NCBI GenBank assembly: GCA_010093605.1
Contig: MU004200.1
Location: forward strand, 682,001 to 746,000
Length of the DNA: 64,000 nt
Source of the DNA: Lophium mytilinum
Taxonomy: Eukaryota
Reading direction: 5' to 3'
How positions within the stretch are numbered: the stretch's first letter is position 1; each line of letters begins with the position of its first letter. The position numbers were made by a program, and so were the translations under genes. This document shows, piece after piece, positions 50,651 to 51,539 of this stretch. The notes under the pieces are model-generated. The model searched no databases. It saw only the letters and a list, made by a program, of their open reading frames with translations, and was not told where the DNA came from.

Positions 50651-50962
50651 TCAAACGACGAGTTTCTTTGTAGGCTCCGGGGGTGGAGTGCAGCCTTTGC
50701 CGTTGCATTCCTCTTTTCCCGGCTCGAAATTACAGCAGCACGTCTTTGTTCCGCACTCATAGCAACACAAGTTTTCGATGCCGATTCTAGCGTTCTTGAT
50801 TTCGGCAATCATGTCGTAGTTTGAGCCTTGGTCGAAGGAAATCTGTTGTCCGTTCCCTTGTGGAGCAGATGTCGTGACCGAATCGGAGCAGATGGGACGA
50901 GAACACGAGACGGGACGAGACGTCGAGATTAACAAGAAGAACGCGGATGGGAGATACATCAT
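50651..50962 (-). CDS. Small secreted Cys-rich protein (103 aa, 10 Cys), effector/toxin-like candidate
   Basis: Signal-like N-terminus MMYLPSAFFLLISTSRPVSC and the motif NLCCYECGTKTCCCNFEPGKEECNGKGC. A paralog lies on the opposite strand. Confidence 0.7.
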   Translation of the reverse strand: MMYLPSAFFLLISTSRPVSCSRPICSDSVTTSAPQGNGQQISFDQGSNYDMIAEIKNARIGIENLCCYECGTKTCCCNFEPGKEECNGKGCTPPPEPTKKLVV

Positions 50963-51266
50963 GTATAGATATAGAAAAGGTTGTAACAAGTGATGCTGGT
51001 GGATGCAGAGAAAATTGGTCTTTCTTGCAGGCGAACATGGATTGAAGATACTAGTCCGTCGGGAAAGATGAACATAATGCATTACTTCACGTGGCGTGGG
51101 TGGCGCAGCAGGCGTAATTCCGAAACAAAGGCGCAGCCTTTCATGGTACGGCTGAATTTTAGTTTCTGTGCCTCTCTCACAAACTGCAATGGTGGAGGTG
51201 GCGCGGTCTGGACTATTACACGATTGCGGAAACACGTATGGCGCATGTCTAAACAAACTGGGCTAA

Positions 51267-51539
51267 ATGGCCAAGATCATTCGCTGTTACGTTGTTATAC
51301 TGAGACGTCATGTGTCGGGTAATTTCATGGTGCCCTTCGAAAGAAGACCCCCAATCAGCATCACCATCAATGAAGGCACAAATTGCGAGCTGGCGGACCA
51401 GATCAGCAAGACCGGATTCGCAATCAAGAACTTGTGCTGCTACATCTGCCAAACCCAAAGGTGTTGCTGCAATTTCATTCCTCTAGGCTAAATTTGTAAT
51501 GCCTTCGGATGCATCGGTATTCCAGAAACGCCACCGTAG
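51267..51539 (+). pseudogene. Paralog of the Cys-rich protein with an in-frame premature TAA
   Basis: NLCCYICQTQRCCCNFIPLG*ICNAFGCIGIPETPP*. Homology and Cys spacing continue past the TAA at 51489-51491. Confidence 0.7.

Follow-up and report, generated by a model that had tools for sequence, protein, structure and literature searches.

The 64,000-nucleotide stretch of Lophium mytilinum DNA that was analyzed (GCA_010093605.1, contig MU004200.1, positions 682,001 to 746,000, forward strand; hereafter the window) contains, at 50651..51539, two small Cys-rich paralogous reading frames in head-to-head orientation, referred to here as gene A and copy B. Both frames were found where a sequence-only reading of the window had placed such a pair. 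Coordinates are positions in the window unless another contig is named, and the features of the locus are as follows.

50651..50962, minus strand: gene A, an intact, intron-less coding sequence of 103 amino acids (P0001) plus stop (open reading frame; the start aligns with orthologue starts)
50903..50962, minus strand: signal-peptide-like region of gene A, approximately the first 20 residues, with core LPSAFFLLI (hydropathy and alignment)
50690..50767, minus strand: 8-Cys module of gene A, CC-x2-C-x4-CCC-x8-C-x4-C, 26 residues (motif scan)
50963..51266, no strand: 304-bp spacer separating the divergent start codons (from the coordinates), presumed to be a shared promoter region
51267..51539, plus strand: copy B, a B-type paralogue of 90 codons and probable pseudogene (open reading frame, alignment, tree)
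51435..51512, plus strand: 8-Cys module of copy B, broken by TAA (motif scan)
51489..51491, plus strand: in-frame premature TAA of copy B, 5′ of Cys7 and Cys8 (the aligned codon of L001, a metagenome locus described below, is CAA, Gln)

The start codons (50962 or 50959 for gene A, 51267 for copy B) lie head to head with ~305 bp between them, against ~300 bp in the sequence-only reading. The gapless alignment with all 8 Cys kept that it had reported was recovered using BLASTP with X at the copy B stop (24/56 identical, E 2e-15, 8/8 Cys). From the N to the C terminus, the gene A product is laid out as a signal-peptide-like N-terminus, a variable linker, a predicted helix, the 8-Cys module and a Pro-rich tail; with 10 Cys in 103 amino acids, it lies within the size (<300 amino acids) and Cys content (>~4-5%) ranges used for small secreted Cys-rich proteins (SSCPs). 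A six-frame scan of the window using the looser 6-Cys pattern C-x3-C-x4-C-x-C-x8-C-x4-C matched in two places only, the A and B modules, and tblastn detected no third copy within the 64 kb. The exact P0001 sequence was already present as a called protein in the public protein collection.

Searching P0001 against 1.84 billion cluster representatives using phmmer (exhaustive) gave six proteins at E up to 0.001, and the following four were accepted.

P0002, 92 amino acids, E 3.2e-19: hypothetical protein, Clohesyomyces aquaticus
P0003, 87 amino acids, E 2.1e-18: hypothetical protein, Cenococcum geophilum
P0006, 54 amino acids, partial record, B-type, E 1.5e-4: hypothetical protein, Cenococcum geophilum
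P0007, 450 amino acids, from a 4,467-bp Logan contig, E 2.1e-4: distant relative with three 6-Cys modules

The other two (P0004 and P0005) were dropped as spurious, as both are long and repetitive and match only residues 15-55 of the query, the part without Cys. A profile of the small members regained the earlier relatives and added P0008 (178 amino acids, an over-extended gene call) and P0009 (103 amino acids), both attributed to one JGI contig (218,983 bp), on which both A and B types are found. Members were therefore recovered from Cenococcum geophilum, Clohesyomyces aquaticus and one JGI contig by the kind of search that the sequence-only reading had proposed. The Cenococcum records XTI87885 and XTI87886 (P0003 and P0006) are consecutive accessions from one contig. 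A word-index homologue search with P0001 as query returned only P0001 itself among 3 candidates, and the same type of search using an alignment dominated by the 450-residue P0007 returned P0007 and P0001 only.

In an 8-member alignment, all 8 Cys columns are invariant, and only 6 further columns share this property (the start Met, I41, N64, N78, F79 and P81); ~8 sequences thus carry all family-level statements made here. Neither P0001 nor copy B matched any Pfam family at E up to 10, and none of relevance matched P0002, P0003, P0006 or P0007 at E up to 1, the one row for P0006 (E 0.6) being meaningless. CFEM (PF05730) was among the models without a match at these thresholds, and the spacing CC-x2-C-x4-CCC-x8-C-x4-C is that of neither CFEM nor hydrophobins, as the sequence-only reading had noted. 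Among PDB sequences, the profile matched one entry only, without significance (HdrC iron-sulfur subunit, E 0.14). The ESM Atlas feature search contained no usable match for P0001 or P0007, and its structure rows were unrelated proteins with TM scores of 0.42 or less throughout. Literature searches, in which a Cys motif is not searchable as text, turned up no description of the family. The JGI number of the Cenococcum orthologue, 664378, is absent from the text and 10 supplement files of PMC5816826, one scanned PDF aside; in 12 of the 16 supplement files of PMC5023957 it occurs only as a digit run inside the RPKM (reads per kilobase per million) value of another gene; and no paper was found that contains both ‘664378’ and ‘Cenococcum’. 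By sequence comparison, then, A and B belong to a Cys-rich family that is real, conserved and as yet undescribed, recorded in databases as “hypothetical protein” and, as far as found, confined to Dothideomycete fungi. This agrees with the sequence-only reading, which had called the motif unfamiliar and had named a match to a described family as a ground for giving up the claim; none was found in Pfam, PDB sequences or the fold searches described below.

To locate the pair in other genomes, metagenome contigs were scanned with the pattern, which gave 32 matches, and two loci (L001 and L002) passed tblastn. L002 was dropped, as it shared only the common word NLCCYEC inside an unrelated reading frame. 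L001 is Cenococcum-like, its A-type protein being 98% identical to P0003 and its B-type protein agreeing with P0006 at each of the 54 residues known for P0006, and contains both genes.

5004-5264, plus strand of the L001 contig: A-type gene, intact
3864-4148, minus strand of the L001 contig: B-type gene, complete

These genes also lie head to head, ~850 bp apart, and both encode a clear hydrophobic N-terminus. When L001 was compared with the window using tblastx, similarity was confined to the two genes and the flanks were unrelated. A maximum-likelihood tree built on the 53-residue domain placed the B-types of the window, L001 and P0009 in one clade (support 98/100) and the three P0007 repeats in another, and left the A-types unresolved. 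As the B-type clade spans three genomes, the A/B duplication predates the split of these fungi, and A and B are best described, from their sequences, as an old duplication kept as a divergent pair. Selection was measured by the Nei-Gojobori method over 53 aligned codons of the window and L001. For A, the nonsynonymous rate (dN) was 0.239 and the synonymous rate (dS) 0.926, a ratio of 0.26 (0.24 before the module and 0.28 within it); for B, the corresponding proportions of differences were pN 0.19 and pS 0.85, with synonymous sites saturated. Both A and B have therefore been under constraint for most of their history. Lack of purifying selection, which the sequence-only reading had listed as a ground against itself, is contradicted by the ratio of 0.26 for the A orthologues.

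Copy B starts with MAKII, resembling the MRKSI of the intact orthologue, and the hydrophobic core of its N-terminus is truncated and contains Arg. The premature TAA differs from the CAA of L001 by a C-to-T change in a CpA context. Because of the stop and the shortened hydrophobic N-terminus, copy B of the window is probably a recently inactivated copy, a young pseudogene, and with B broken, A is likely the one working copy here.

Transcript evidence was taken from sequencing run X3, which is classed as RNA by the guess of a tool and by two GT..AG-type skips in its contigs. None of the sequencing runs listed for the locus is on record as RNA, and two DNA runs among them may be the source of the window. 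One X3 contig covers gene A.

50473..51111, no strand: 639-nt X3 contig, depth 13, 0 differences, aligned end to end (X3 on 49400-52600)

The contig consists of gene A, ~150 nt upstream and 178 nt downstream, without an intron, and fits an unspliced mRNA of gene A. X3 depth over 49400-52600 was very uneven (121.6, 13, 3-7 and 0), and the lack of X3 cover over 51112-51514, which includes most of copy B, does not show that B is silent. The RNA-like contig also contains an ATG at 51082, upstream of gene A and in frame with it; use of this ATG would add 40 residues and make the hydrophobic stretch internal. This longer form was rejected, as the orthologues start at the 50959-50962 position and the L001 start is closely preceded by a stop. 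Other X3 contigs skip 50162-50235 and 51705-51933, whose CT..AC ends correspond to GT..AG introns on the minus strand. The first skip is inside repeat array B and the second just left of repeat array C (both described below), and the contig with the second skip overlaps the 3′ end of copy B in antisense. Spliced RNA from the minus strand seems to cross the repeat arrays.

A hydrophobic core following a short polar stretch is present at the N-terminus of 7/7 intact small members (9-residue Kyte-Doolittle mean 1.84-2.68). For gene A, the best 9-residue mean is 2.32 at residues 4-12, and the orthologues align at the same start. Ahead of the module is a conserved stretch, I-x-x-x-x-G-S/T-N-x-E/D-hydrophobic-I/A-x-E-I-K/S-K, for which a helix is predicted. 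The residue two positions ahead of the first Cys is always Asn, Tyr or Phe is conserved after Cys2, Asn-Phe-x-Pro is invariant after the CCC (Asn-Phe after Cys6), and the tail is short and often Pro-rich. The mature domains are acidic (isoelectric point (pI) 4.4-4.9). A ninth Cys, in GTNCE, is conserved in the B-types (3/3); A-types have Tyr or Gln at that position.

The distant relative P0007 bears on how the Cys residues are paired. Its modules read N-I-C-T-F-P-C-G-x3-C-Q-C-T-Y-x8-C-x4-C, so that 3/3 repeats retain six of the Cys and have other residues in place of both Cys2 and Cys5. The joint loss suggests a Cys2-Cys5 disulfide, in which case the Cys residues would serve as structural disulfides and not as metal ligands. 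Each P0007 module is preceded by LEPR, LEPRR or LDAR ~five residues before the first Cys, and the modules alternate with other Cys-rich, Lys-rich segments; from its sequence, P0007 may be a polyprotein precursor.

Structures were predicted using AlphaFold2 for the full-length protein with a 7-row alignment (mean predicted local distance difference test score (pLDDT) 53.9) and for the domain only with 8 rows (mean pLDDT 64.2). Both runs gave a helix at 48-57 followed by beta-hairpins at 65-70/73-78 and ~84-92, with module pLDDT ~70-80. Neither model had a significant match in the fold searches (top E values of 3.8 and 4.3 in Foldseek; in VIA, a top Z of 3.0, and no match at Z 2 or more), and as the models are of low confidence, these null results point to neither a new nor a known fold. 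The AlphaFold and Foldseek check suggested by the sequence-only reading thus ended with low-confidence models and no significant fold match.

The pair is flanked by decayed tandem repeats of one family, a third array of which lies further to the left.

50022..50242, plus strand: array B, two decayed ~110-nt units, each ending in a GATCTAACCGCG-like box (box and unit alignment)
51896..52990, plus strand: array C, ~9 decayed ~100-112-nt units of the same repeat family (box and unit alignment)
43147..43583, minus strand: array A, an inverted partial copy with 3 units of the same repeat family (box and pairwise match)

The box RATYTAACMGCRYRA, with up to 1 mismatch, was observed 9 times versus 0.18 expected, and 0/100 shuffles reached 9. 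One of these boxes is on the plus strand left of the pair, five are on the plus strand to its right, and three are on the minus strand at 43148-43451; looser matching of the box gave 2 units left of the pair, ~9 to its right in the same orientation and 3 inverted at 43147-43583. The 14 units of ~100-112 nt have a mean pairwise identity of 51%, and the arrays went unreported by Tandem Repeats Finder. The arrays B and C of the sequence-only reading are therefore real and in the same orientation, as claimed, with the qualification that they are heavily decayed. Positions 43328-43583 of array A match 51896-52154 of array C at 71%, and 43147-43221 match 50047-50122 of array B at 83%. The 3′ box of the unit (~GTGCAAA-ACT-AC-GATCTAACCGCG) has decayed far less than the remainder of the ~110 nt, and the CTAAC that it contains resembles the fungal branch-point consensus. 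L001 contained 0 matches to the array box, and its tandem repeats are of short period only (7-36 nt), without a long-period array like the ~110-nt units. At 2090-2514 of L001, ~1.4 kb beyond the B-type gene, are AT-rich 36-nt and 12/24-nt tandem repeats, whose consensus units look unlike those of the window.

We put at roughly 0.65 the probability that A is a secreted, acidic, four-disulfide mini-protein of an undescribed family and that B is an old paralogue that died recently in this genome. A short N-terminal signal peptide would take A into the secretory pathway, where the eight Cys of the 26-residue C-terminal module would form four disulfides, one of them Cys2-Cys5, that tie two beta-hairpins, after a short helix, into a rigid knot. 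The acidic mini-protein so made, of ~8 kDa, would leave the cell for its wall or the medium and would presumably serve as a stable ligand, binding or inhibitory, when the fungus meets other organisms. A and B would derive from an old duplication and have been retained as a divergently transcribed pair until B was inactivated, presumably recently, by a nonsense codon and its signal peptide decayed, so that A would work alone here. Clohesyomyces aquaticus is a freshwater wood saprobe. As the family occurs both in this species and in a mycorrhizal fungus, a host-specific effector is not indicated, and we lean toward a function at the cell wall or in encounters with other organisms. The sequence-only reading had offered an effector, an antimicrobial or a metal-binding protein; the secreted-like, Cys-rich character stands, while the host-specific effector is not indicated, the mature domains are acidic, unlike classic cationic antimicrobial peptides, and metal binding is disfavored for the reasons given below.

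Several points weigh against this account. Secretion is predicted from hydropathy and alignment, and the core of A is short (~8-9 residues). Overall confidence in the structure models is low, and disulfide geometry is not readable from them. Acidic mature domains are unlike most known antimicrobial peptides, making an antagonist role a guess. The estimates of selection come from 53 codons with dS near saturation, and as pN/pS of copy B is still low, its stop may have arisen very recently or be confined to the strain that was sequenced. That X3 is RNA is a guess, and its contigs show neither strand nor transcript ends. Finally, the exhaustive search yielded very few members, and statements about the family stand on the ~8 sequences aligned.

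A and B could instead make up a two-component or heterodimeric secreted factor, co-expressed from the spacer, with the ninth Cys of B forming an intermolecular bond and the whole crippled here by the loss of B. The head-to-head arrangement in both the window and L001, the presence of both types on one JGI contig, the extra Cys in GTNCE of all three B-types at the place where A-types have Tyr or Gln, and the age of the B-type clade are in keeping with this idea. We consider it unlikely, as A of the window is intact while B is broken, and A is presumably useful alone; the low dN/dS of A is an average over the whole divergence and no gauge of constraint since B was lost, and Clohesyomyces gave an A-like member only, which is not proof that B is absent there. 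We regard as quite unlikely a more elaborate version, in which the module would be a new disulfide framework and fold, A and B would be an ancient secreted two-component system, co-regulated from the one spacer, linked covalently through the ninth Cys of B and with toxin-like or signaling activity against other organisms, and P0007 would be a case of the same module made as a processed polyprotein. The processing of P0007 is conjectural.

The density of eight Cys in 26 residues, with CC and CCC runs in an acidic surround, is also what a metallothionein-like metal-thiolate binder of copper or zinc could look like, and the weak, non-significant HdrC profile match (E 0.14) points the same way. 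Metallothioneins are cytosolic proteins without a signal peptide, with few or no aromatic residues and with C-x-C or C-x-x-C metal-binding clusters. Very high Cys density and adjacent Cys are shared with the fungal metallothioneins, whereas the A/B family has a signal-peptide-like N-terminus, predicting the oxidizing secretory pathway, and conserves aromatic residues and Asn-Phe-x-Pro inside the module (the Tyr/Phe after Cys2 and the Asn-Phe after Cys6). Moreover, Cys2 and Cys5 were lost together in P0007, as disulfide partners would be, and no Pfam metallothionein matched at E up to 10; we therefore consider metal binding unlikely. That the pair is a cassette moved in or out by recombination, as the sequence-only reading had proposed, would fit the flanking of the pair by same-orientation arrays of one repeat family and the inverted copy at 43147-43583, in which B-like and C-like pieces are only 107 bp apart. 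However, the pieces of array A are in the order opposite to B...C, so that array A is not an empty site for the pair, and a unit identity of 51% is too decayed for efficient homologous recombination. Furthermore, L001, the one other locus with readable DNA, has the same pair with unrelated flanks, 0 box copies and no long-period array, its repeat sequences not having been compared with the window units. The arrays look like decayed intergenic repeats that are incidental to, and not part of, the gene unit, and we consider the cassette very unlikely. That the frames are chance open reading frames or non-coding DNA is suggested by their small size, the lack of a Pfam family and a poor ESM Atlas model (predicted template-modeling score (pTM) 0.29), and is scarcely credible in view of orthologues in three or more genomes with 8 invariant Cys, the dN/dS of 0.26 and the A versus B E of 2e-15.

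The secreted mini-protein favored here shares with fungal small secreted proteins (SSPs) and SSCPs a length of <300 amino acids, a signal-peptide-like N-terminus, a high Cys content (10/103 in A), the lack of a known domain and a narrow taxonomic range. Secretome studies, such as that of Cenococcum geophilum (PMC5816826), treat SSPs as candidate effectors, and the 22 mycorrhiza-induced SSPs of that study are reported to be highly polymorphic for presence or absence among strains. The A/B family differs from the SSPs described there in being conserved across genera as a pair and in occurring also in Clohesyomyces aquaticus. With knottins (inhibitor cystine knot peptides) and other disulfide-rich mini-proteins, EGF-like two-hairpin modules included, it has in common a module of ~26-30 residues, 6 core Cys plus an extra pair, a predicted hairpin core and the position of the module at the C-terminal end of a signal-plus-leader precursor. 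In knottins, a third disulfide threads the ring that the other two close. The A/B core spacing is 3, 4, 1, 8, 4, however, and the fourth loop (8) appears too long for the classic cystine-knot pattern; fold searches with low-confidence models listed no knottin, and EGF domains at E above 4 only.

Hydrophobins contain eight Cys in the pattern C-CC-C-C-CC-C. Class I and II hydrophobins resemble the A/B family in having eight Cys and in being small, fungal and (for A/B, by prediction) secreted, and differ from it in that the A/B pattern is CC-C-CCC-C-C within 26 residues and the mature domain is acidic and polar; the hydrophobin Pfam models (PF01185 and PF06766) gave no match at E up to 10. Fungal defensins of the CS-alpha-beta type are cationic, ~40 amino acids long and contain a helix bearing C-x3-C. 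The A/B domains are acidic, and a plant defensin was listed by Foldseek only at E 8.4, with a low-confidence model. Of the proteins in the family, only P0007 is like the Kex2-processed proteins (KEPs), having three modules with LEPR/LEPRR/LDAR before each, and the window genes differ from KEPs in being single-module and in having no conserved dibasic site before the module.

Fungal genomes contain many orphan small secreted Cys-rich proteins, very few of which have a known structure or target, and the A/B family is one of many such families. It is unusual in packing four putative disulfides and a CCC run into 26 residues, in being conserved across genera of differing lifestyles and in being kept as a divergent paralogue pair. 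If the fold proved to be new, it would offer a compact scaffold for peptide engineering, and the pair would also be a case in which the idea of paired secreted peptides in fungi could be tested. We regard the outcome as sound annotation of modest weight: the family is real and unnamed, with a living and a dead copy at this locus; the cassette, which was the most striking part of the sequence-only reading, is unsupported.

The window is fungal in look, and A and B sit between a split aquaporin gene and the next gene. The surrounding genes with Pfam matches are as follows.

39553-41328, minus strand: MFS transporter
42273-43106, plus strand: histidine phosphatase
44275-46575, minus strand: PA plus RING
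47881-49572, plus strand: aquaporin, split by introns
55380-56453, minus strand: CWC25
57837-58592, plus strand: PCI

In the spacer, scans for bacterial promoters (sigma-70) and terminators gave 0 predictions, these models being bacterial and not meaningful for a fungus, and Rfam contained 0 matches to 49000-54000 at E up to 1. Positions 50292-50376 of the window are an ~83-nt piece of a dispersed repeat, which has one copy in the 64 kb and no Rfam match. In X1, a DNA run, the k-mer depth of this piece is ~10,800 versus ~190 in its flanks (~57-fold). Other copies of the repeat share further sequence leftward, and the variant scored at 50335 is present in 43 contigs (contigs were counted per place, up to 128).

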